Shown: piece after piece, positions 23,165 through 33,404 of the stretch | How positions within the stretch are numbered: the first letter of the stretch is position 1 | Layout: every line of letters begins with the position of its first letter | Assembly: GCA_963793265.1 (NCBI GenBank) | Contig: CAWBZI010000004.1 | Coordinates: forward strand, 352,001-416,000 | Direction: 5' to 3' | DNA length: 64,000 bases | Source: an uncultured cyanobacterium | GTDB taxonomy: Bacteria; Cyanobacteriota; Cyanobacteriia; Phormidesmidales; Phormidesmidaceae | Made by a program: the position numbers and the translations under genes | The notes under the pieces: model-generated | What the model was told of the DNA's origin: nothing | Databases searched by the model: none | The model's input: the letters and a program-made list of their open reading frames with translations, nothing else

Positions 23165-24226
23165 TTAGAATTTTTGCTTTTGTTTTTGATATTGAAGATA
23201 ACGTATGGACTCTATGCTAGATGGATCATAAGCAACTTCTTGAGCTGCCATATGTACATTTCCCCACAGATCGAGAGCAGATAAAGGAAGGTTATTTTTG
23301 GCTTTGTAAGGACGCGTTAGCAAAAAATGAAAGTGACTGGCTTTAGCGTTTCTGTCTTGTGCTTTTTCACGCAAGAAGATTTCTTTGTCAATCTGTTTAG
23401 GCGTTTTTGCTGTAGCACTTTCGGCTTCACTCTTTATCTTTTCCTTACTGGTCTTTGTTTTTGACCATTCAGGAAAGAATTCAAAAGGATCAGAGGCTTC
23501 AGGTGTATGAGAGAATGACACGTGTTGAGGTGTAGAAAACCCCTGAATTAGGCTGAAAATTGCGGTCGTTACGAGCAAGCCTAAAACTCTAGCATAGGTC
23601 AAAAAGCTACCTGCCCGGCGAGCCGATGCTTGTTGTTGAACGGCAAGCTGGTTGATGCGGTCATTCTGGATTTTGAAAGTAATATCGCGAATTTCATTGC
23701 GAGAATCTACTTTGTTCGGCACGCTGGTCGTTGAAACACCGCGCTGCGATTCAATCGCGGCACTACTTTCTAAATCGGTCTTTAACAGATTGAGTTGAAC
23801 ATCAGCAGGTGTAATTTGAAGCAGCTCAGCAATTCTGTTGATATCAAGATTGGAGAGATGCTGCTGCCTCGAAAGCTGGTAGTAGTCCAGCAGTGTTTGG
23901 GTTTGCGCCACCGATGTCTTACATGCATTAACCTGCTGAGTCCCTTTCAGCGTAGGCATATTTAGTACAGGCGCTAGCGTTTCTCTTAAAACAAACTCCT
24001 TGACAATTGCTGTTTGGTCGTCTGCGTAAGCTTTAGCGCGATCGCCATCAAGATCTATATCAGAAAAAAGTGCCTCATCAATTTCATTTGTCAGCACAGC
24101 AAATGTTAGATCTCGGCAAGCGAAATCTAACAGTTGGCCCATGCGGTCGGCTTGTTGATCGGAGAGTTCGATTGCACTTGTCAGCGCGAGATATTCCCGC
24201 GTAAGTGCAGCGTAGTCGGCGTCCAT
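23165..24226 (-). CDS. Putative membrane-anchored anti-sigma factor (two N-terminal helical repeats, one TM, C-terminal tail)
   Basis: Directly downstream of a sigma gene; repeats EY..L.....LS....DR...LL shared with ORF 25171; TM YARVLGLLVTTAIFSLI; function inferred. Confidence 0.55.
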   Translation of the reverse strand: MDADYAALTREYLALTSAIELSDQQADRMGQLLDFACRDLTFAVLTNEIDEALFSDIDLDGDRAKAYADDQTAIVKEFVLRETLAPVLNMPTLKGTQQVNACKTSVAQTQTLLDYYQLSRQQHLSNLDINRIAELLQITPADVQLNLLKTDLESSAAIESQRGVSTTSVPNKVDSRNEIRDITFKIQNDRINQLAVQQQASARRAGSFLTYARVLGLLVTTAIFSLIQGFSTPQHVSFSHTPEASDPFEFFPEWSKTKTSKEKIKSEAESATAKTPKQIDKEIFLREKAQDRNAKASHFHFLLTRPYKAKNNLPLSALDLWGNVHMAAQEVAYDPSSIESIRYLQYQKQKQKF

Positions 24227-24299
24227 GATCGTATCCTACAGTATTAGCAAAAGTTCGTTTGTCCTATGCATTGCTCTATGCTTCTTTTTATGTGCCTTG

Positions 24300-24968
24300 C
24301 TATGGGCTATCAAAAGCCCGGCGAAGTCGATGCAAGGCGCGTTCTCCCTGCTTCCGAAGCGTCGATTCTGAGATGTCAATCTGTTGCGTTTTGGATAATC
24401 TATCTTTTACTTCGCGCCATTTTAGGCCCATACCCACTCGGAGATTTAAGATCTCTCGGTCGCGCTCGCTCATACTATTCATTGTTAAAACCAACTTATT
24501 GATCATGCTCTCGTTAATGTAGGCAGGCGATGTCATCTCACCGCTAAACGTTGCAATCTCCTTAGTATTCTTCTTGAGAATATTGGTATTTCTTTTAGAG
24601 CGTCTGCTGTATTCGTGAATAATATTATACGAAACACTATTCATCCACGACAGCAAGTTATCAATCTCCCTGCCTTCCTCAAGCTGAAGATGAGTCCGAA
24701 GATAGGCTTCGATCAGCACTTCATCAGCGCTGTGATAAGACTCTAAATGAAACTGACGCAGCCTTTTCTGTACAGAAAAAAACATTTTACGAAAGCTACT
24801 GTCCGATTGGGTGTCGAGCAAGGCATCCATAAGGGTGTTCAGCGACTGCAGCCTTTCGGCAATTTCGGCGCTATGGGTGGGTATTTCATCAGGATAAAAG
24901 GCAGGCCCGTCCTGAGGCCCGTTGGTAGACAGATGCATTGGCGTTTTGTCAGGGGTTGGCATGAGCAT
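24300..24968 (-). CDS. ECF-like sigma-70 family factor
   Basis: Region 2 (DEVLIEAYLR...IDNLLSWMNSVSYNIIHEYSR) and region 4 (MSERDREILNLRVGMGLKWREV...TLRKQGERALHRLR); start uncertain (24968, 24962 or 24938). Confidence 0.8.
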   Translation of the reverse strand: MLMPTPDKTPMHLSTNGPQDGPAFYPDEIPTHSAEIAERLQSLNTLMDALLDTQSDSSFRKMFFSVQKRLRQFHLESYHSADEVLIEAYLRTHLQLEEGREIDNLLSWMNSVSYNIIHEYSRRSKRNTNILKKNTKEIATFSGEMTSPAYINESMINKLVLTMNSMSERDREILNLRVGMGLKWREVKDRLSKTQQIDISESTLRKQGERALHRLRRAFDSP

Positions 24969-25170
24969 TCCTGCGCGCGTCCGAGTATAAGTGACATAGA
25001 CCTGCAAAAATGTGACACCTTTGCAGGTAAAGGTATATATGGGTTGTTTTTCAAGGGTAACGAAGATGTTATGAATGTTTACCAAGCGGCGATCGCTTAG
25101 CTTATTAGCAGATAAGCGATCGCCCAGCAGTCGGATAAGTCGGCACGAACGAGACTTAACAGATTAGCCG

Positions 25171-25659
25171 CTACAAATGCGCTTCTGTCGAGATTTTCTC
25201 AATGGCCTTTTTGCGAGCAGCTCTGATCTGTTGAAGCAAGTTGCTTTCGACTGTAGAGGCCAGTGGCGCGTCAAGGTCAAGGCGCTCGCGCAGTACAGCG
25301 CGCTGGTTTTCATAGTCGTGCAGGGCCGCAGGGCTAAGTAAGCCAATATCAGCACCTTTGTGATAGGCCGCGCGCGATATCCAAAAGTCGATGTTGCCGT
25401 GAACAGTCGCCATGACTAAGATCGCTTCGATCCTATCTTCCTGCGCTTCAGAGAGAGTCGGCAAAATCATCAGTTCGCCGTATTCATCTCCTATCTTTTT
25501 GGCATCTTCAAGAGAGATTGTAGTGCCGGGCTTCCCTTCTTTGGGGTTGTTGAGCGAGTTCGTGATGTCGGGTACAGTTTCCAATTTCTTATCGTCCAAA
25601 ACGGAGTGCGGTATCGTATTTTTTGAATGGCCTGCTGGAAATATAGTCCAGCGGCTCAT
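25171..25659 (-). CDS. Soluble protein with one copy of the helical domain found in ORF 23165
   Basis: DEYGELMILPTLSEAQEDRIEAILVMA...YENQRAVLRE aligns by eye with REYLALTSAIELSDQQADRMGQLLDFA...YADDQTAIVKE; start uncertain. Confidence 0.65.
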   Translation of the reverse strand: MSRWTIFPAGHSKNTIPHSVLDDKKLETVPDITNSLNNPKEGKPGTTISLEDAKKIGDEYGELMILPTLSEAQEDRIEAILVMATVHGNIDFWISRAAYHKGADIGLLSPAALHDYENQRAVLRERLDLDAPLASTVESNLLQQIRAARKKAIEKISTEAHL

Positions 25660-25829
25660 TTCTCTATGAATAAGCAGAGAAAGTGTGACAGACGAATCGA
25701 AAAATAATTGCAAGTCCTTGCTGAGTATTGCTTTTGGCAGTTTGCTCTGTCATAAACCGGGGGCCATAGGAAAGGGAAAGCCGCTGTGGGCCTTCCCCTA
25801 TTTATCGTCTAGCGACTATGACCTACCCG

Positions 25830-26132
25830 CTAACAATCATGCGTTAATTCCCTGATAATTCTGTAGCTCTCAAGCCGCAGCCAAGCCATAGGGTTGCCAA
25901 TAGGCTCTCCCTGCTCTAAAGCGGCTAGACCTTGCTGATAGCCCTGTAGCAGTATGTACTCTACAGTCGGCTTGGGCGATATGGGCGATCGCGCCAAAGC
26001 CTGCGATACAGATATCCATATACTCAAGGTGCTTTGATTGCCCTGACGACAGATATCTTTCATTGCGTCTTTAAGCTGCTTATGCTTAGGATTATTAGGG
26101 TCGTAGGCAACGACCGTCTGGGGCTTAGTCAT
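25830..26132 (-). CDS. Stand-alone sigma region-2-like protein (no region 4)
   Basis: SVSQAL...TVEYILLQGYQQGLAALEQGEPIGNPMAWLRLESYRIIREL aligns with region 2 of both flanking sigma factors; GGAG RBS. Confidence 0.7.
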   Translation of the reverse strand: MTKPQTVVAYDPNNPKHKQLKDAMKDICRQGNQSTLSIWISVSQALARSPISPKPTVEYILLQGYQQGLAALEQGEPIGNPMAWLRLESYRIIRELTHDC

Positions 26133-26222
26133 TAAAAATACTCCAAAAAAGGTTCCTCAGTTCTATATGGCGTACATATGTAAAGCGGTTGTTGCCAAAA
26201 AACAGCTCGTCTTAAAAGCTGG

Positions 26223-26861
26223 TCAATCTAAAGACAGATCTGCTTTTAACTGCTGTATCGCTCGGTGTTTTCGCTGCCTGAGCGCCCCCAAAGAACACTG
26301 TTGATAGCCCATAGCAACCAATCGGTCTTGAACGATCTTCCACTGCAACCCTTCCACAATATTCAGGGTCAAGATGTCTTGATCTAAGCGTGAAAGCTGC
26401 TGAAAAGACTGCTGGATCTGCTGGTGCTTTGGACTTAGCTCATCATCAGATAGCCATTCTGGCTCAGTCCACGAATCGGGTATCCGCTCAATTATCTCTG
26501 TCTGTGCTTCTTGCACTCTTCTACGCCGCTTCTCCCGACTTTCTTCTTTAATAATGTAGCGACAGGTTAGCCTTATCCAGGCAATAGGGACAGGAATGCT
26601 TTTGCCCTTATTAATTGCCGCAATGCCGCGTACAACGGCCTCGTTAATAACTGACGCCGTTGTGCAGGATCTACCCAGGTCGTACCGTCGTAGCTCGGCG
26701 GCCACTGATACCATGAGGCTAATCATGTCTTGATTTTTGGGCTCGTATATGGTCATAATCGCCTGGTAAAAAGCCTCGTGCTCGGGCGTTAGGCTTGCCT
26801 GAGCTGCTCGATCGGTACCTCGAAGTGAGCGTGTTTTATTACGCTTAGCATGATGAGTCAT
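26223..26861 (-). CDS. ECF-like sigma-70 family factor
   Basis: VINEAVVRG...IPVPIAWIRLTCRYIIKEESR (region 2); LSRLDQDILTLNIVEGLQWKIV...ALRQRKHRAIQQLK (region 4). Confidence 0.82.
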   Translation of the reverse strand: MTHHAKRNKTRSLRGTDRAAQASLTPEHEAFYQAIMTIYEPKNQDMISLMVSVAAELRRYDLGRSCTTASVINEAVVRGIAAINKGKSIPVPIAWIRLTCRYIIKEESREKRRRRVQEAQTEIIERIPDSWTEPEWLSDDELSPKHQQIQQSFQQLSRLDQDILTLNIVEGLQWKIVQDRLVAMGYQQCSLGALRQRKHRAIQQLKADLSLD

Positions 26862-27375
26862 GTTTTTTTCCTAGAGAATGGCAAACATGTGTATGAGTAA
26901 GAAGAAAGCCCTATTAAAACGGGGCGGCGGGATTAAAGAAACTTTCTTGGATGTATGAATGACGAGTGCAGATAAGAATCTATTTAGGCCCGCACAACGG
27001 TTGTTAAAATAGGGTTTGGCTCGATACCACAACCTTCTATGTGAAAACTGATGAAAGTGTGACAGAGGTAGTTGACGGTGGCTGTTAGCGGTGATACCTA
27101 GCTATTGTTCTAACGTCTTAATGAGGCGGTATGCTAGCTCGTTGTCCTACATAGTGGCTTATTTCTGTACTGATAAACCCGCTGAAACCCTTGCTATAAG
27201 GGAACCTGCAATTCATGCATTTTCTTGTACGAACATTTCTTTTATACTAATGAAAATTAATGTGGGGATAGGTATACGTTTTTTAGTGACCAGGCGTTGA
27301 TGCGGCGATCGCATCACAACCTGTAGCCACCGCGAAAAAAAGATAAACAAAAGGTAGTGCAATCAGGAAAAATCT

Positions 27376-28683
27376 ATGCCTTCATTGGATAAGGACGAGA
27401 ATAGGAAAAATCGACAGCAGCAGAAAGCGTGGCGGGACAAGGTGATCGCTCGGCTAGGTTTTAAAGACATGGCAGCGCTAGCAAGAGCAGCAGGCGTTAA
27501 CGATGGTGATCTATCAGGTATTTCGAGAGGAACCCGCAAGCCTAGTAACGCAGTAGCTCATAAGCTGATCCTGGCAATTCGAGACTGTAATTATCAAAAA
27601 GGATGGAACTATGCTGAAGCTGCCCTATATTTTCAAGACACTTTCAACTACCTGCGGGGTTACTATGCTCAGCAGCGCGGTGAGAAGGCTGTCTTTATCG
27701 ACGAAGAAGACATTCTAAAGTGGTACGACAGCTACCTGTATTGCACATCTCAGCAGCAGGAAGACTTTGCTGAACCGCTGAGCATTATTGCAGCAAGTAC
27801 TTCTGTAGGAGAGTCTCTATCCTATTTATTAGAATCTCTCAAGAACTGGAAGATGAAGCATGACTTTGATCTGCTAGGAAAGAAAAAGTATCGATTTCAA
27901 CACAATAAAGCGTTTATTATTAAGCCGACTTTATATAGAGCTATGAAGGAGGAACAGTATTATGAGCAAATCAAGGCTATATATACGGAGATAAGACATA
28001 TCGCGTACCTTTGCGGTGCCTTTGAGTTAGTGCAATCAATGTCTTACTGGCTTCGCGATCAGGCCAAGCAGCGCCACGATATTCAAACAGAAGTAAAAAC
28101 TAAGGTAACGATTGCATGGATGCAAACGTCATTTAACAGTACACAGAGCCTTCAAGATGCTAAACAACTTGTTCAAGCGGTTAACGGCATTGTTAGCGCT
28201 AGTAGCTTTCTTGCAGAGGTAAGCGCTGAAGATATGGATGTTATTGCAACGCTAGCAGAGCTACGCATGAGGCTAGAAATTCGGTTGGCTCAAAAGTGCT
28301 ATCTGCCATTGAGCCTCGAAAGGTTCAACAAGCTCTCAGAAGAATCTGAGGTGCTGTTATGTTCCCCAGCTAGTTTCCATGCGCTGCCTACTCGATTGCA
28401 GTCTCGATATACTATTCCACTTGACTATCAATACGGTGTATATTTGCATAGTCTGAGAGACTATGAGGGTGCGCAGCTAAAGTTTGAGTCGATTGTTGCT
28501 AGAGCTAACCGCATCGGCTGGATTAGGATAGAACAAGCTGCCTATAGCTGGCTGGCTGAGTCTTTTGAAAAGATGGGCGACAGAGAAAATTGCTGTGCCA
28601 TGCTAGAGAAAATGACGGTTCCTTATCTACCCAAACGACAGCTAATTAGGGCAAACATTCGAGCGAATATTGCAGAAGTCTGA
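27376..28683 (+). CDS. XRE-type HTH protein with a C-terminal TPR-like helical domain
   Basis: MAALARAAGVNDGDLSGISRGTRKPS HTH; C-terminal helical repeats (YQYGVYLHSLRDYEGAQLKFE..., IGWIR..AAYSWLA). Confidence 0.7.
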   Translation: MPSLDKDENRKNRQQQKAWRDKVIARLGFKDMAALARAAGVNDGDLSGISRGTRKPSNAVAHKLILAIRDCNYQKGWNYAEAALYFQDTFNYLRGYYAQQRGEKAVFIDEEDILKWYDSYLYCTSQQQEDFAEPLSIIAASTSVGESLSYLLESLKNWKMKHDFDLLGKKKYRFQHNKAFIIKPTLYRAMKEEQYYEQIKAIYTEIRHIAYLCGAFELVQSMSYWLRDQAKQRHDIQTEVKTKVTIAWMQTSFNSTQSLQDAKQLVQAVNGIVSASSFLAEVSAEDMDVIATLAELRMRLEIRLAQKCYLPLSLERFNKLSEESEVLLCSPASFHALPTRLQSRYTIPLDYQYGVYLHSLRDYEGAQLKFESIVARANRIGWIRIEQAAYSWLAESFEKMGDRENCCAMLEKMTVPYLPKRQLIRANIRANIAEV

Positions 28684-28750
28684 GCCCGTAAAGACCTGCT
28701 AATAAAAATAGTACGCAATAAGAAAAGCCAAGAGAGCTTGAGAGGTTACT

Positions 28751-29932
28751 ATGACCGATAACACCCACGTTAAAGTGCCAGCAGATAAGCTGCTGAGCGA
28801 TCTGATCGAGAGCGAAGATGTTGATAAAAAAGTGAGCGAGAAGCTTGAGCAGCAGGCCGCTATTCGGTTTGAGTCTCTAAGCTTTAAAGCTTTAAACAAC
28901 GAGTGCAACAAACTTAAAGAAAGGCTAGAGAAATACTACAGATACTTGAAAGGTTGGGAGCTGCACCATGATTTTGAACTATGGGAGCACGCTGAAAGTC
29001 ATGTCGGCAGCGTTTGGCTAAAGCTGAGAAGCGCCCTGCATTTGGCGATGGAGTATGGGCTATACGAAGAGGTGAAGGCGATCTTTTTAGAGCTGAAGCT
29101 GCTGCTGCAAACGGCAGGCTTTGTTAAAGACCGTATCTACTTAGCGGCCTGGTTAAAATCAGAAGCCGAACGCCGCCAGGACTGGATTAGTATGCACCTG
29201 ATGACCGCTTCGTTGGTTTGGTCGTATACGTCTTTTGGCTGTAATCAAAATATTGCAAAGGCAGATGAGCTTTGGAGCGACCTGATCCCGTTTTTACTCA
29301 GCGTTGGTGATACGACAGATTGTAACGAATGCAGAAAGTATTTTCGCGATAGAGAAGATATTTATCCTTACACCGAGATGCTGGTAGATATTTACGAGAC
29401 GGGTACTCGAATAGCGATACGATGTTCAAGATTTGATGATGTAAAAGAGTATATTCGTAGGGGCCGCGCGGAGATTTCACTGCTCTCTCAAAGCGGATTT
29501 TTGTCAATACGGCTAAAGGAGCGCTTTGATATCGCTTTTAGCTATCATGAGGCGATCGCCTGCTACTTAACCAGCCAATATGAGCGTGCGCAGGCTTTGT
29601 TTAACGATGCCGTTGAGCGTGGTGAAATGATCGCCTGGAACCGGCTAGTGCGTGGGGCTAAGAGCTGGCTAGCTACGATTGCAATTGAGCTGGAAAATTA
29701 TGTTGAATGCGAGCAAATCTTGTCTGAGATTGTAGAAGATTGTGAGCTAAATAAGAGCAAGCGAGACGTGATGTGCCATTTGGTTAAGGCCCGGCTGTTG
29801 CACGAACAGGGACAGCCAAGCGAGCAGGTCATGAGTGAGAAAAAGGCGATCGCGGCGCTAGAAAAGTTTTTTGAAGAAAGTTCTGGCACCTACGATCTCG
29901 ATTCATTCAGGCTCAAGCCTTGCCCTGTGTAA
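28751..29932 (+). CDS. TPR-like protein, paralog of the C-terminal domain of ORF 27376, no HTH
   Basis: LKGWELHHDFEL vs LKNWKMKHDFDL; AME..LYEEVKAIFLEL vs AMKEEQYYEQIKAIYTEI; IAWNRL..GAKSWLA vs IGWIRI..AAYSWLA. Confidence 0.7.
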   Translation: MTDNTHVKVPADKLLSDLIESEDVDKKVSEKLEQQAAIRFESLSFKALNNECNKLKERLEKYYRYLKGWELHHDFELWEHAESHVGSVWLKLRSALHLAMEYGLYEEVKAIFLELKLLLQTAGFVKDRIYLAAWLKSEAERRQDWISMHLMTASLVWSYTSFGCNQNIAKADELWSDLIPFLLSVGDTTDCNECRKYFRDREDIYPYTEMLVDIYETGTRIAIRCSRFDDVKEYIRRGRAEISLLSQSGFLSIRLKERFDIAFSYHEAIACYLTSQYERAQALFNDAVERGEMIAWNRLVRGAKSWLATIAIELENYVECEQILSEIVEDCELNKSKRDVMCHLVKARLLHEQGQPSEQVMSEKKAIAALEKFFEESSGTYDLDSFRLKPCPV

Positions 29933-29958: not shown

Positions 29959-31818
29959 ATGGATAATGTGAATTTGCCTGAAGCTGACTCGAATTTGTCA
30001 CCGACTAAGCGAGCCTTACTTGCCCTGAAACATCTTCAGGGCAAGCTGGATAAACAGCATGAGCCAATTGCGATCACTGGCATGAGCTGTCGGTTTCCAG
30101 GAGTCGCGGACACACCAGCGGCTTATTGGCAACTGCTAAAGAACAAAAAAGATGCGATCGCCCCCATTCCCCAAGACCGCTGGCCTGCTACCTATCACAG
30201 CACTGAACCTGATGAGCCCGGTAAAGTGATCGCTCATCAAGGCGGTTTCATCCCTCACCTGTACGACTTCGATGCCGCCTTCTTTCGCATTTCTCCCCGT
30301 GAAGCCCTGACCCTCGATCCGCAGCAGCGCCTTGCTTTAGAACTGGGTTGGGAAGCGTTAGAGAATGCCGGAATCTCACCCGAAATGCTTGATAATCAGC
30401 CAGTCGGTGTATTTTTAGGCATTAGCAGCATTGACTACTGGCAACAGGTTTTAGCACAGTCTTCTGAGGCCATTGATGCTTACCTTGCCACGGGTAACAG
30501 TCATAGCGTTGCGGCCGGGCGACTCTCCTTTTTATTAGGACTCAACGGCCCTAGTCTGGCCGTTGATACCGCCTGTTCTTCTTCTTTAGTCGCTGTTCAT
30601 TTAGCCTGCCAAAGCCTCCGACAGCAGGAATGCAGCATCGCGCTGGTCGGCGGTGTAAATCGCATTATCACACCCGCTGCCAGTATTAATTTCTCTAAGG
30701 CCAAAATGCTCTCTGCCGATGGCCGCTGTCGTACTTTTGACGCGGCGGCAAGTGGCTTTGGTCGAGCTGAAGGCGGCGGAATGATTGTACTTAAGCGGCT
30801 AAGTGATGCTGAAGCTCAGGGCGATCGCATCCACGCCGTCATCCTGGGTAGCGCAACCAACCACAACGGACGAACCAATGGCCTTACCGCTCCAAGCACC
30901 ACCGCGCAGCAGACCGTTATTCGTCAGGCTTTAGCTGCTAGCCGCATTGAGCCGAGTCAGGTTAGCTACGTCGAAACGCACGGTACTGGCACCGCACTGG
31001 GCGATCCGATTGAAGTGGCTGCGTTAGGAAAAGCGTATGGGGATAAGCGTGATCGCCCGCTAATCCTGGGCGCTGTTAAAACAAACGTGGGTCATACTGA
31101 AGCCGCTGCCGGTATGGCGGGTTTGATTAAAGCAGTGCTGGCGCTAGAGCAGGCTCAGGTTCCTGCTAATTTGCATTTAAAGCAACCGAATCCTGATATC
31201 AACTGGGATTCTTTGCCGGTTAAACTTCCTCAAGATTCGATGCCCCTACCTTCAGCCGACAGACCTCATACTGCTGGCGTTAGTGCCTTTGGTTTTAACG
31301 GCACGAATGCTCATTTGATTATTCAAGCCTCGCCTGCACGGGCTAAAGGTTCTAACGTTGAACGATCTCAACGGCTTTTGCCACTGTCCGCGCGATCGCC
31401 TGCCGCTCTCAATCAGCTTGTTGCCCGCTATGCCCAACACCTAGCCACCCATCCCGACCTTGATTTGGCTGATTTGTGTTTTACCGCTAGCGTGGGGCGA
31501 TCGCACTTCTCCCATCGCCTAGCGATTGTCGCAGACTCTACTGTAGATCTGCGAAAAATCTTGGTGAGCGTTCTAGCAGGTCGCCCCCACCCTGACTGCT
31601 GGAAAAGCGATCCGGAAACGCCCAGCGCAGACCTGAAGATACTCGCTGAGCCAAACTCTCTTTCATACTGGGCGCAATGCTATGCTCAAGGCCAAACAAT
31701 TGACTGGGAAAGCTTATACTCATCTAGCGATCGCCTATCAGGCCATCGTCAAAAGCTCGTTCTACCGACTTATCCATTTCAGCGCCAGCATTACAGCATC
31801 CATTCGATTTCGGATTAA
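29959..31818 (+). CDS. Stand-alone type I PKS ketosynthase (docking domain, KS, linker; no AT or ACP)
   Basis: EPIAITGMSCRFPG, DPQQRL, DTACSSS, HGTGT, KTNVGH, SAFGFNGTNAH, C-terminal LPTYPFQR; no GHSxG AT motif. Confidence 0.9.
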   Translation: MDNVNLPEADSNLSPTKRALLALKHLQGKLDKQHEPIAITGMSCRFPGVADTPAAYWQLLKNKKDAIAPIPQDRWPATYHSTEPDEPGKVIAHQGGFIPHLYDFDAAFFRISPREALTLDPQQRLALELGWEALENAGISPEMLDNQPVGVFLGISSIDYWQQVLAQSSEAIDAYLATGNSHSVAAGRLSFLLGLNGPSLAVDTACSSSLVAVHLACQSLRQQECSIALVGGVNRIITPAASINFSKAKMLSADGRCRTFDAAASGFGRAEGGGMIVLKRLSDAEAQGDRIHAVILGSATNHNGRTNGLTAPSTTAQQTVIRQALAASRIEPSQVSYVETHGTGTALGDPIEVAALGKAYGDKRDRPLILGAVKTNVGHTEAAAGMAGLIKAVLALEQAQVPANLHLKQPNPDINWDSLPVKLPQDSMPLPSADRPHTAGVSAFGFNGTNAHLIIQASPARAKGSNVERSQRLLPLSARSPAALNQLVARYAQHLATHPDLDLADLCFTASVGRSHFSHRLAIVADSTVDLRKILVSVLAGRPHPDCWKSDPETPSADLKILAEPNSLSYWAQCYAQGQTIDWESLYSSSDRLSGHRQKLVLPTYPFQRQHYSIHSISD

Positions 31819-31870
31819 TTTCAGTGCTATATTCATCTGCAAGTATAAAAAAGTGTGAGGTACGCAGTTT

Positions 31871-32569
31871 ATGACTTCTCCTAACGTTGCTCAGGCTACG
31901 CGTTCAGTGGCCCGACGATCGTCGCTTAAGCTCACTGGTAAACTAAGTGCGATCGCCCTTCTTCTCGCCGTTCCCGCTGCCTTTGTGTCTAACGCCAACC
32001 CCTCAACCGCTGCGTCTGCTACTGCTGCCTCACTTCACTCCATGAAAAGCACCCTCGACGACTTATCTGCTCAAGACAAAGCAATTTTAGAGAGCGGTCA
32101 GGTGACAATTGAGAGTGATGACAACGGTCAGTTCACGGGGCGGGTGCTTGTCAATGCCTCTATGCCGGAAGCCTGGCAGGTGCTTACGGACTACGACAAC
32201 TTCGAGCAGTTTTTGCCTCATATCGAAAATAGCCGCCTGCTAGAAACGAATGGCGATCGCAATCAGTTCGAGCAGATTAACGTTGTTCCGATTCTTCCTT
32301 TTGTGACTAGCCGTAGCACTATTGTGATCGAGTCTACCGAGCACTATCCACAGCGGGTTGACTTTAACTTAGTAGAAGGTGACTTAGACGCGCTTCAGGG
32401 CGTATGGTCGCTTGAACCCATTGGCGATCAGGTATTGGTAACGCACCAAGTCTCTATTGATCCTGGCAGTGGCTCGCCTAAAGGCATCTTTTTTAGCACC
32501 TATCGCAATGTGTTAGAAGATTCTCTTGGCGCTGCGAAAGTAGAAGCTGAAAGGCGCGCTGGCGAGTAA
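31871..32569 (+). CDS. SRPBCC / START (polyketide cyclase-like) lipid-binding protein with a signal-peptide-like N-terminus
   Basis: AWQVLTDYDNFEQFLPHI, F.LVEGD....QGVW.LEP. Confidence 0.85.
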   Translation: MTSPNVAQATRSVARRSSLKLTGKLSAIALLLAVPAAFVSNANPSTAASATAASLHSMKSTLDDLSAQDKAILESGQVTIESDDNGQFTGRVLVNASMPEAWQVLTDYDNFEQFLPHIENSRLLETNGDRNQFEQINVVPILPFVTSRSTIVIESTEHYPQRVDFNLVEGDLDALQGVWSLEPIGDQVLVTHQVSIDPGSGSPKGIFFSTYRNVLEDSLGAAKVEAERRAGE

Positions 32570-32591
32570 ACATAATCTGGCTATTAGCCTC

Positions 32592-33404
32592 ATGAAAAAA
32601 GAGAATCAGCACGCCATTATCACGGGCGGGTCGAGCGGTATTGGTAAGGCGATCGCGCTTCAGCTTGCTCGGCAGGGAGCTTCTGTTTCCATCATCGCTC
32701 GCGATTTGCAAAAGCTAAAGTTCGCCCAAGCTGAGATAGAACAGGCGTGTTGTTCTCCTTTGCAAAAAGTGTTAGCGCTGTCAGCAGATGTGAGCGATCG
32801 CCCACAAGCCGAACAGGCTATCAACTCTGTAATCAATCAGCTCGGCCCGCCGAGTCTAATCATCACTAGCGCCGGTATTGCCTACCCTGGACACTTTCAA
32901 GATATTCCCATCGAAATATTTGAACAAACGATGGCGACTAACTATTTTGGTACGCTCTATTGCATTCGAGCCGCTTTGCCGGTAATGGAACAACAGGGTC
33001 AGGGGCAGCTTGTCATCATTTCTTCGGGTGCAGGACTTATTGGTCTGTATGGCTATAGTGCGTATGGCCCTAGCAAGTTTGCAGTGCGGGGGCTAGCTGA
33101 GTCTTTGCGCGCTGAGCTGAAGCCGGTTGGGATTGGAGTTGCGATCGCCTACCCGCCCGATACAGACACCCCTCAGCTCATAGAAGAAAGTAAAACAAAG
33201 CCACCTGCCACCAAAGAGATCACTGCTACTGCAAAGCTATGGACAGCAGATGATGTCGCCAGCGTTATCTTACAAGGAACAGAAAAAGGAAAGTTCGAGA
33301 TTTCTCCTGGAACAGAAATTGGCGTTTTAACCAGAATGCACAGTCTGATTGCCCCTATCCTAAACCAGTATTTTGATCGTATCGTCGCCCGCCATCCTCG
33401 CTAG
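32592..33404 (+). CDS. SDR oxidoreductase, 3-ketodihydrosphingosine reductase (KDSR)-like
   Basis: ITGGSSGIG, YGPSK (YxxxK), AVRGLAESLRAEL, AYPPDTDTP. Confidence 0.85.
   Translation: MKKENQHAIITGGSSGIGKAIALQLARQGASVSIIARDLQKLKFAQAEIEQACCSPLQKVLALSADVSDRPQAEQAINSVINQLGPPSLIITSAGIAYPGHFQDIPIEIFEQTMATNYFGTLYCIRAALPVMEQQGQGQLVIISSGAGLIGLYGYSAYGPSKFAVRGLAESLRAELKPVGIGVAIAYPPDTDTPQLIEESKTKPPATKEITATAKLWTADDVASVILQGTEKGKFEISPGTEIGVLTRMHSLIAPILNQYFDRIVARHPR

Follow-up and report, generated by a model that had tools for sequence, protein, structure and literature searches.

Divergent ECF-type sigma factors paired with putative partner proteins in a proposed duplicated module on a cyanobacterial gene island

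The 64,000-nucleotide (nt) stretch of DNA from an uncultured cyanobacterium of the family Phormidesmidaceae analysed here (contig CAWBZI010000004.1; the window) carries at positions 23165-29932 an island of seven open reading frames (ORFs) made of three paralogous domain types: a divergent sigma factor of the extracytoplasmic function (ECF) type, a helical domain of about 90 amino acids (aa) designated domain X, and a tetratricopeptide repeat (TPR) solenoid. The minus-strand genes follow in the order S212, s100, A180, S261 and A353, while T435 and T393 are on the plus strand. We read the island as a duplicated sigma/partner module in which the domain-X proteins are likely anti-sigma factors and a sigma factor likely drives its own TGTCACA-N15/16-CATAG promoters, and assign this reading a probability of roughly one half. 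A preceding sequence-only reading of the window had described seven contiguous ORFs between an RND pump and a ketosynthase (KS) gene, and all were found in place with intact reading frames.

S212 (26223-26861, minus strand), the founding member of the clade studied, and S261 (24300-25085, minus strand; true start probably near 24968) are, as judged from their sequences, divergent ECF-type sigma factors. Their alignments to TIGR02937 extend over sigma regions 2 and 4 (sigma2 and sigma4) and show neither sigma3 nor sigma1.1, S212 (about 212 aa) matching at E 7e-5 with 22.5 bits over profile positions 22-163 of 165, and S261 (about 220 aa from its probable start) at E 1e-9 with 38.3 bits over positions 18-164. 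The two are paralogues (BLASTP E 2e-13), and a family profile of 40 members, 39 of which match TIGR02937 at E<=1e-3 (best 4e-12), retrieves exactly S212, S261 and s100 both from the window and from the whole genome. S261 matches this profile at E 1e-43 and forms a long, unplaced branch within the family tree. The three sigma2 copies proposed earlier, in two ECF-like sigma factors and one sigma2-only protein, are recovered by BLASTP and the family profile alike. An exhaustive search returned 409 clusters of S212 relatives at E<=1e-3 and 143 at E<=1e-10, and among 401 genomes sampled from the class 53 contain the clade, representing 34 of 169 genera. SigG is widespread in cyanobacteria, and as the S212 clade occurs in 13% of the sampled genomes it is unlikely to be identical with SigG.

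Domain X is found in A180 (25171-25713, minus strand) and A353 (23165-24226, minus strand). BLASTP detects no similarity between these proteins; hhalign aligns A180 residues 55-147 with A353 residues 7-101 (76.6% probability, E 2e-5), and a profile constructed from 18 domain-X copies of other proteins matches A353 at residues 3-79 (independent E-value 5e-12) and 104-148 (1e-7), the second match comprising the first half of the domain only. As the profile matches A353 twice, the earlier count of three copies of a helical domain in two proteins holds, with one copy in A180 and one and a half in A353. A180 is a predicted soluble protein consisting of domain X with nothing C-terminal to it (conserved core at residues ~64-154 of the long ORF; the protein-database form has 162 aa and starts at 25659). 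A353 is a predicted membrane protein with one strongly hydrophobic stretch, a putative helix at ~208-230, followed by a C-terminal part of ~120 aa; its AlphaFold2 model places four helices in residues 2-88 at a pLDDT of 38 and is unreliable. The sole relative of A353 among 5.8 billion proteins (P0015, 53% identity) is matched by the X profile in the same manner.

Gene linkage connects domain X to the sigma factors. Across cyanobacteria a domain-X match lies within 2 kb of at least 48 of 72 full-length sigma matches of the clade, and a sigma gene lies within 2 kb of 46 of 62 domain-X matches, among the matches listed. Both counts are lower bounds, as X was taken from the best matches, with 1837 further ones beyond those; seven partial matches to sigma2 only and X matches confined to the peptidoglycan-binding part were left out. 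Conservation of the gene neighbourhood across cyanobacteria was a check set beforehand, and this linkage bears it out for the sigma and X genes. A domain-X ORF is also present in 14 of 20 sigma loci examined, nearly always adjoining the sigma gene (in L115 it is 4.3 kb away). The X proteins combine a constant N-terminal helical domain of ~90 aa with variable C-termini: PG_binding_1 repeats occur in 11 of 16 X relatives at E<=0.01 (nine of them above the Pfam cut-off), and an arrangement of two X copies, a transmembrane (TM) segment and a tail is seen in A353 and in L113:10515-12080, each encoded directly downstream of a sigma gene. In the ESM Atlas no usable match was obtained for A180, and a relative combining X with a peptidoglycan-binding part was nearest to an unnamed cyanobacterial cluster with PG_binding_1. 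The peptidoglycan-binding X proteins (of L099, L102, L106, L108, L109, L112 and L113) have no evident signal peptide or membrane helix by hydropathy, and their wall-binding domain would therefore be cytoplasmic. At L113 (G378:C231:8183-25262), the richest array seen, a single contig carries three clustered sigma-X pairs, of which one includes an X-X-TM protein; an Mrr-like nuclease and a type I restriction enzyme are encoded alongside.

Such a pattern is most simply that of a cognate sigma regulator, a putative anti-sigma factor, and gene linkage and architecture together suggest that domain X is likely an undescribed anti-sigma-like partner. The domain that sits by these sigma genes appears to define an uncharacterised family of sigma regulators, and no description of a cyanobacterial ECF sigma factor with a peptidoglycan-binding anti-sigma factor was found in the literature. 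It may instead be that the X proteins are not inhibitors, and represent either the main, cell-wall-directed output of the sigma factor or its positive co-factors, which would agree with the cell-wall task suggested by the peptidoglycan-binding repeats of most X relatives, with the promoter-like motif that precedes X genes in this island and its orthologue as it would precede regulon members, and with the lack of likeness to known anti-sigma domains. However, the constant part of these proteins is the N-terminal X and not the peptidoglycan-binding part, A180 being X alone and A353 having a membrane helix instead; most X proteins carry neither a signal peptide nor a membrane segment, by hydropathy, with which to reach the wall; and the tight one-to-one pairing, including the three pairs on one contig, is the pattern of a cognate regulator. 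We regard an output or co-factor role as quite unlikely.

Promoter-like sequences upstream of the minus-strand genes provide the second line of evidence. The heptamer TGTCACA, which the sequence-only reading had noted upstream of three of these genes, is not enriched in itself (6 occurrences in the window as compared to 5.4 expected); three of the six are inside the island on the strand of the genes, upstream of S212, A180 and S261, as had been claimed. The sites of S212 and A180 share TCTGTCACACTTTC, 14 identical bases, followed by CATAGA 15-16 nt downstream, and constitute candidate promoters of the form TGTCACA-N16-CATAG at 27037-27064 (minus strand, ~175-200 nt upstream of S212) and TGTCACA-N15-CATAG at 25664-25690 (minus strand, just upstream of the A180 ATG). 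At S261 the heptamer (25011-25017, minus strand) is followed by a second TGTCAC-like word. In the orthologous island, locus L007 (21 kb), every one of the three TGTCACA words falls within the module and on the strand of the genes, TGTCACA-N15-CATAGG preceding the orthologues of s100 and A180, and a variant, TGTCACG-N15-CATGAG, precedes the S212 orthologue. The relaxed form TGTCAC-N15-17-CATRG has seven matches genome-wide, two of them in the island, as compared to control counts of 1 and 3. A bipartite promoter-like motif that recurs in an orthologous island fits autoregulation, the first half of the earlier expectation that ECF sigma factors are usually autoregulated and paired with anti-sigma factors; the second half gains from the linkage of X genes to the clade and loses in that X resembles no known anti-sigma factor. 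Searching the other 19 sigma loci gave one match downstream of an X gene in L110 and a few unrelated ones elsewhere, and the motif seems specific to this subclade because it is absent beside the sigma genes of those loci. The only other match to TGTCACA-N16-CATAG in the genome (G000:C1:1184061-1184088, L013) lies ~119 nt upstream of a large minus-strand ORF (3-1382) with a P-loop, by eye a STAND-like ATPase, and may represent a regulon member or a chance match.

Several observations weigh against the sigma/anti-sigma reading. Both sigma factors score below the curated TIGR02937 cut-off of 42.9 bits, reach only 17.5 (S212) and 18.2 (S261) bits against Pfam Sigma70_r4_2, where the cut-off is 25.7, and have no match to Sigma70_r2. 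Domain X, searched as A180, as A353 and as a 19-copy profile, has no match in Pfam, NCBIfam or PDB sequence profiles, and so shows no resemblance to any anti-sigma domain known there. For 24 of the 72 sigma genes no X is found within 2 kb among the matches listed, and six of the 20 loci hold none; peptidoglycan-binding repeats without an export signal are moreover odd for a cytoplasmic sequestering protein. With regard to the promoters, none of the other 19 loci showed the motif next to a sigma gene, no more than 3 nt separate the A180 site from the annotated ATG, S261 has no CATAG half at the spacing of the other two sites, and s100 has no such site in the window, where it follows a terminator-like hairpin with a T-run (26203-26221, minus strand; consensus scan only) placed directly after the S212 stop.

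In the mechanism that we propose, A180 would sequester S212 in the cytoplasm, and A353 would hold S261 at the membrane by its N-terminal X copies while its extracytoplasmic C-terminus would act as the sensor. A signal would release the sigma factor, which would then transcribe its own gene together with those of s100 and A180, giving positive feedback that newly made partner protein would hold in check. The s100 protein could modulate this circuit in trans, perhaps by acting as a decoy that engages A180 or RNA polymerase, and the extra sigma2 domain fused to other family members could have the corresponding effect in cis. T435 might be a DNA-binding regulator that binds a ligand or peptide and works with T393. 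Partner switching, to which the sequence-only reading had appealed, is not borne out, as no STAS, kinase or phosphatase component is present. A bolder version of the same idea, which we consider speculative and on balance doubtful, would make domain X a new anti-sigma domain that is mostly fused to cytoplasmic peptidoglycan-binding repeats and forms a switch reading cell-wall fragments, such as those released by phage or lytic attack, to turn on a sigma factor whose relatives are joined to caspase-like, TRADD-N and STAND modules of death or immunity; the island would then be an expanded form with a membrane-bound double-X sensor, a sigma2-only decoy and a rare pair of helix-turn-helix (HTH)-TPR receptors.

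The s100 gene (25830-26132, minus strand) encodes a putative stand-alone sigma region-2 protein, similar to the N-terminal halves of S212 (BLASTP E 2e-10) and S261 (E 2e-7) and aligning to positions 9-100 only of the 198 in the family profile. Its orthologue in L007 is 48% identical with an intact frame, and L007 has two sigma2-only genes. Of 15 longer family members scanned, 6 have a complete sigma factor preceded at the N-terminus by a fused, additional sigma2-like domain, and sigma2'-sigma2-sigma4 forms are encoded at L109:7992-8819, L113:7989-8786 and L108:11465-12319 and represented by the proteins P0023, P0044, P0069 and P0134, the last with perhaps a third, partial sigma2 copy. By these comparisons s100 is a genuine sigma2-only paralogue and the presumptive free form of the domain that is fused in other members. 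The array could also be decaying duplicate DNA, with s100 a truncated pseudogene and the extra copies without function, for which one may cite that s100 is half a sigma factor, that S261 has a very long branch and that A353 has a single relative. This is hardly credible, as all frames are intact, the s100 orthologue is intact with a promoter-like site of its own and is accompanied by a second sigma2-only gene, and the fused forms show that an extra sigma2 domain is maintained; the intact orthologue and the fused forms together argue that s100 is a maintained accessory rather than debris. We also considered domain X as a remnant of sigma4, such that s100 and A180 would form a split sigma factor, and rejected this as hhalign gives X against the sigma profile a probability of 0.2%; no ORF of the window is matched by the family profile over sigma4 alone.

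The TPR pair is most readily understood as a module separate from the sigma array. T435 (27376-28683, plus strand) and T393 (28751-29932, plus strand) are paralogues (BLASTP E 4e-18, hhalign 99.7%), T393 corresponding to the T435 solenoid and lacking the HTH-like part. In its AlphaFold model (pLDDT 88.4) T435 has a TPR solenoid from about residue 124 to 435 behind an HTH-like N-terminus at residues ~30-71; the best Foldseek match is to LGN at E 1.7e-3, and VIA-align gives Z scores of 16-18 to Rap, PlcR, NprR and MalT domain III, and to generic TPR proteins as well. A TPR pair with an XRE-type HTH had been proposed, and while the two paralogous solenoids are confirmed the HTH of T435 is only weakly indicated by sequence, with PDB profiles of the LacI/FruR type at E 0.04 and of C.BclI at E 1, and PHROG repressors at E 0.01-0.07, over the N-terminal helices at 32-71. 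Ten relatives of T435, itself included, were found in 5.8 billion proteins, and at E<=0.001 it was detected in a single one of 24 genomes of the genus and in none of 16 other families. A single further locus (seen as L007 and L098) combines the sigma array with the TPR pair, and the pair is absent from 19 of the 20 sigma loci examined. A T435/T393 pair in L009 and a lone T435 homologue in L008 (99.8% DNA identity to L010) have no sigma or X gene within 10 kb, and because the pair is rare and also stands without sigma or X genes, the suggestion that the system senses through its TPR proteins is left without support; the pair looks like a companion that travels with the array in this lineage and not like its sensor. 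T435 and T393 as diverged DUF1822 proteins were ruled out (hhalign probability 0.15%). As read from the translations, the pair at L009 (2283-17493) has as neighbours a patatin-like gene, a relaxase-like gene and the gene of an LRR/Roc-COR-like GTPase (849 aa) whose N-terminus carries an HTH, surroundings that look like a defence or mobile island. In the window the spacer between the divergent S212 and T435 genes measures 514 nt (26862-27375), has a 69-aa ORF (27091-27300) as the only ORF upstream of T435, and includes an imperfect palindrome with 14-nt arms (27291-27323; 53-85 nt upstream of T435). At its centre is GCGATCGC, which we take to be the cyanobacterial HIP1 word, and the palindrome is a candidate operator or else a chance HIP1 site.

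A domain scan was carried out on 24 of the 150 listed matches of S212, namely the top eleven together with 13 from among the longer ones, and in several of these the sigma factor is the C-terminal domain behind other domains. The fifth-best match, P0020 (38% identity, E 4.5e-30), carries a STAND-type ATPase, CHAT and DUF2325; CHAT and TRADD-N precede the sigma factor in P0048 and P0063, TRADD-N in P0138, PIN in P0109, P0122 and P0160, and TPR repeats in P0052. The fusions to CHAT, TRADD-N, PIN and STAND, which the earlier interpretation did not mention, link the clade to the conflict-system sigma factors of Kaur et al. 2021. The island may alternatively be the regulatory part of a system of biological conflict, whether anti-phage or programmed-death, in which the sigma factor would start a defensive or suicidal programme on a signal from an invader and the X and TPR proteins would be the sensors; the sigma/partner mechanism would be the one proposed above, with another purpose and other targets. 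Besides the fusions, this would be in line with the ECF-like HTH domains and ECF sigma genes described for such systems by Kaur et al. 2021 (PMC8195603), with the restriction-modification, Mrr, NACHT, Cas1, AAA_15, HicB or transposase genes beside about 8 of the other 19 sigma loci, and with the relaxase-like, Roc/COR-type LRR GTPase and patatin-like genes around the L009 pair. The patchy distribution of the island, its low GC and the 43-51% identity of its proteins, as compared to 77-84% for the nearby PadR-MFP-RND block, point the same way. On the other hand, the island holds no effector gene (protease, nuclease, NTPase or pore), no PADLOC family is matched and viral contigs yield nothing, many sigma-X pairs reside among housekeeping genes (psbV, plastocyanin, DXS, SMC), and the sigma-DUF1822-CHAT triads of the genome itself use a clearly separate sigma clade. 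These triads, of sigma, DUF1822 and CHAT-like genes, are found outside the window (L060-L065; G000 contigs C2, C3 and C6), and their sigma factors are separated from S212 and S261 with 100/99 support. We consider a link to conflict systems plausible, and a conflict system as the function of this island unlikely. A known defence system was rejected for want of any PADLOC match below E 0.01, and a phage origin was ruled out, as viral contigs contain no island relative and PHROGs gave generic sigma and repressor matches only.

The island is a low-GC accessory island, its 6.8 kb having a GC content of 0.43-0.47 as compared to 0.51-0.56 for the pump region and 0.54 for the KS gene, with a patchy distribution. 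It is flanked on the left by the PadR-MFP-RND block, which contains the RND pump, and on the right by a stand-alone KS followed by an SRPBCC protein and an SDR; the L007 island has flanks that differ from these. The 43-51% identity of the island proteins was measured against their L007 counterparts, and the 77-84% of the pump block in G174, a genome of the same genus in which locus L098 carries an L007-type island ~16 kb from the PadR-MFP-RND block on the other side of that block; the low identity could reflect rapid divergence or else an exchange of the island for a distant allele. A role as dedicated regulator of the neighbouring RND pump or KS-SRPBCC-SDR genes, for which physical adjacency in this genome is the sole argument, is highly improbable. 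At 20 same-genus loci with an RND orthologue neither the island nor KS genes occur in the 1.5 kb downstream, no island gene occurs in the 1.5 kb upstream of 11 KS-SRPBCC-SDR loci, the L007 island is flanked otherwise, and a scan of the window finds no TGTCACA before the KS, RND or TPR genes. The KS is a stand-alone protein of 619 aa with the KS-acyltransferase (AT) linker present and no AT; its trio with SRPBCC and SDR, at window positions 29959-33404, is conserved in 11 same-genus loci (L049-L059), several of which have a polyketide synthase gene of 2,500-2,900 aa ~6 kb away.

Cyanobacteria have few ECF sigma factors, about 2.7 per genome according to the text of Casas-Pastor et al. 2021 (PMC7826278), and the S212 clade is probably under-counted because its members fall under standard model cut-offs. 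Its partner domain is named in no library and is linked to the clade in dozens of genomes, and S212/A180, or a peptidoglycan-binding relative, offers a concrete pair for testing. The occurrence of extra sigma2 domains in both free and fused form suggests an unexplored way to tune sigma activity, and the fusions to CHAT, TRADD-N, PIN and STAND suggest a transcriptional arm of cyanobacterial conflict systems. An orthogonal promoter motif with a small sigma factor may furthermore be of use as components in the synthetic biology of cyanobacteria.

Bacteria have three main signalling schemes, of which sigma/anti-sigma pairs are one, and among ECF (group 4) sigma factors with a co-encoded anti-sigma factor RpoE-RseA and SigW-RsiW are familiar examples. 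The island resembles these in its two-domain sigma factors of ~200 aa, in the adjacent, co-conserved partner, whose N-terminal helical domain is constant and whose C-termini vary and include a single-pass membrane form, and in the promoter-like motif before its own genes. It differs in that the partner domain matches no known anti-sigma family and the sigma factors fall under Pfam and NCBIfam cut-offs, in the additional sigma2-only gene (or fused sigma2 in relatives), and in the many partners with peptidoglycan-binding repeats and no evident export signal. The SigO-RsoA system of Bacillus subtilis is a two-subunit sigma factor and shares with the island a stand-alone protein of sigma region 2; here, however, the window has no sigma4-only partner, X is unrelated to the sigma profile (0.2%), full-length sigma factors are present, and in their relatives the extra sigma2 is fused before a complete sigma factor. 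With the RRNPP regulators (PlcR, NprR, Rap, AimR) T435 has in common a modelled HTH-like N-terminus followed by a TPR solenoid, aligned by VIA-align to Rap of phage Phi105 at Z 18.1 (root-mean-square deviation 4.2, 258 residues aligned), to PlcR at 17.3 (3.5, 215) and to NprR at 16.4 (6.5, 268). As generic TPR proteins score alike (APPBP2 18.4, LGN 18.1), only the fold class is shared, and T435 differs in being cyanobacterial, without sequence similarity to these regulators or an identified peptide gene, and in its pairing with an HTH-less paralogue.

Also comparable are the systems described by Kaur et al. (2021, eLife; PMC8195603), the text of that study reporting ECF-like HTH domains on TRADD-N proteins and genes for an ECF sigma factor and DUF1822 beside EACC2-caspase genes. 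As in those systems, a divergent cyanobacterial ECF-like sigma factor stands beside TPR-type proteins, and S212 relatives are fused to CHAT, TRADD-N and STAND; unlike them, the island has no CHAT or caspase gene (among its seven proteins and 24 flanking ORFs of the window) and no DUF1822, PF08852 being found over its cut-off at 8 places in the genome, none of which is in the window, and the main text of Kaur et al. makes no mention of peptidoglycan or anti-sigma factors. DdvS-DdvA of Myxococcus xanthus, an ECF sigma factor and transmembrane anti-sigma factor which control a CBASS-CRISPR island as outlined in PMC11506125, is similar by concept alone, as an ECF/anti-sigma pair governing defence genes, and differs in that no defence genes adjoin the present island. 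Neither PG_binding nor DUF1822 is mentioned in the main text of the ECF classification by Casas-Pastor et al. 2021 (PMC7826278). Membership of an already described ECF group is conceivable. The sequence-only reading did not recognise the island as a characterised cyanobacterial system, and no paper describing its architecture was found in the literature. What was seen in the DNA is confirmed, and its interpretation is partly supported. The island would be a new variation on the theme of sigma and anti-sigma factors, with a possible tie to conflict systems and a mechanism that is inferred.

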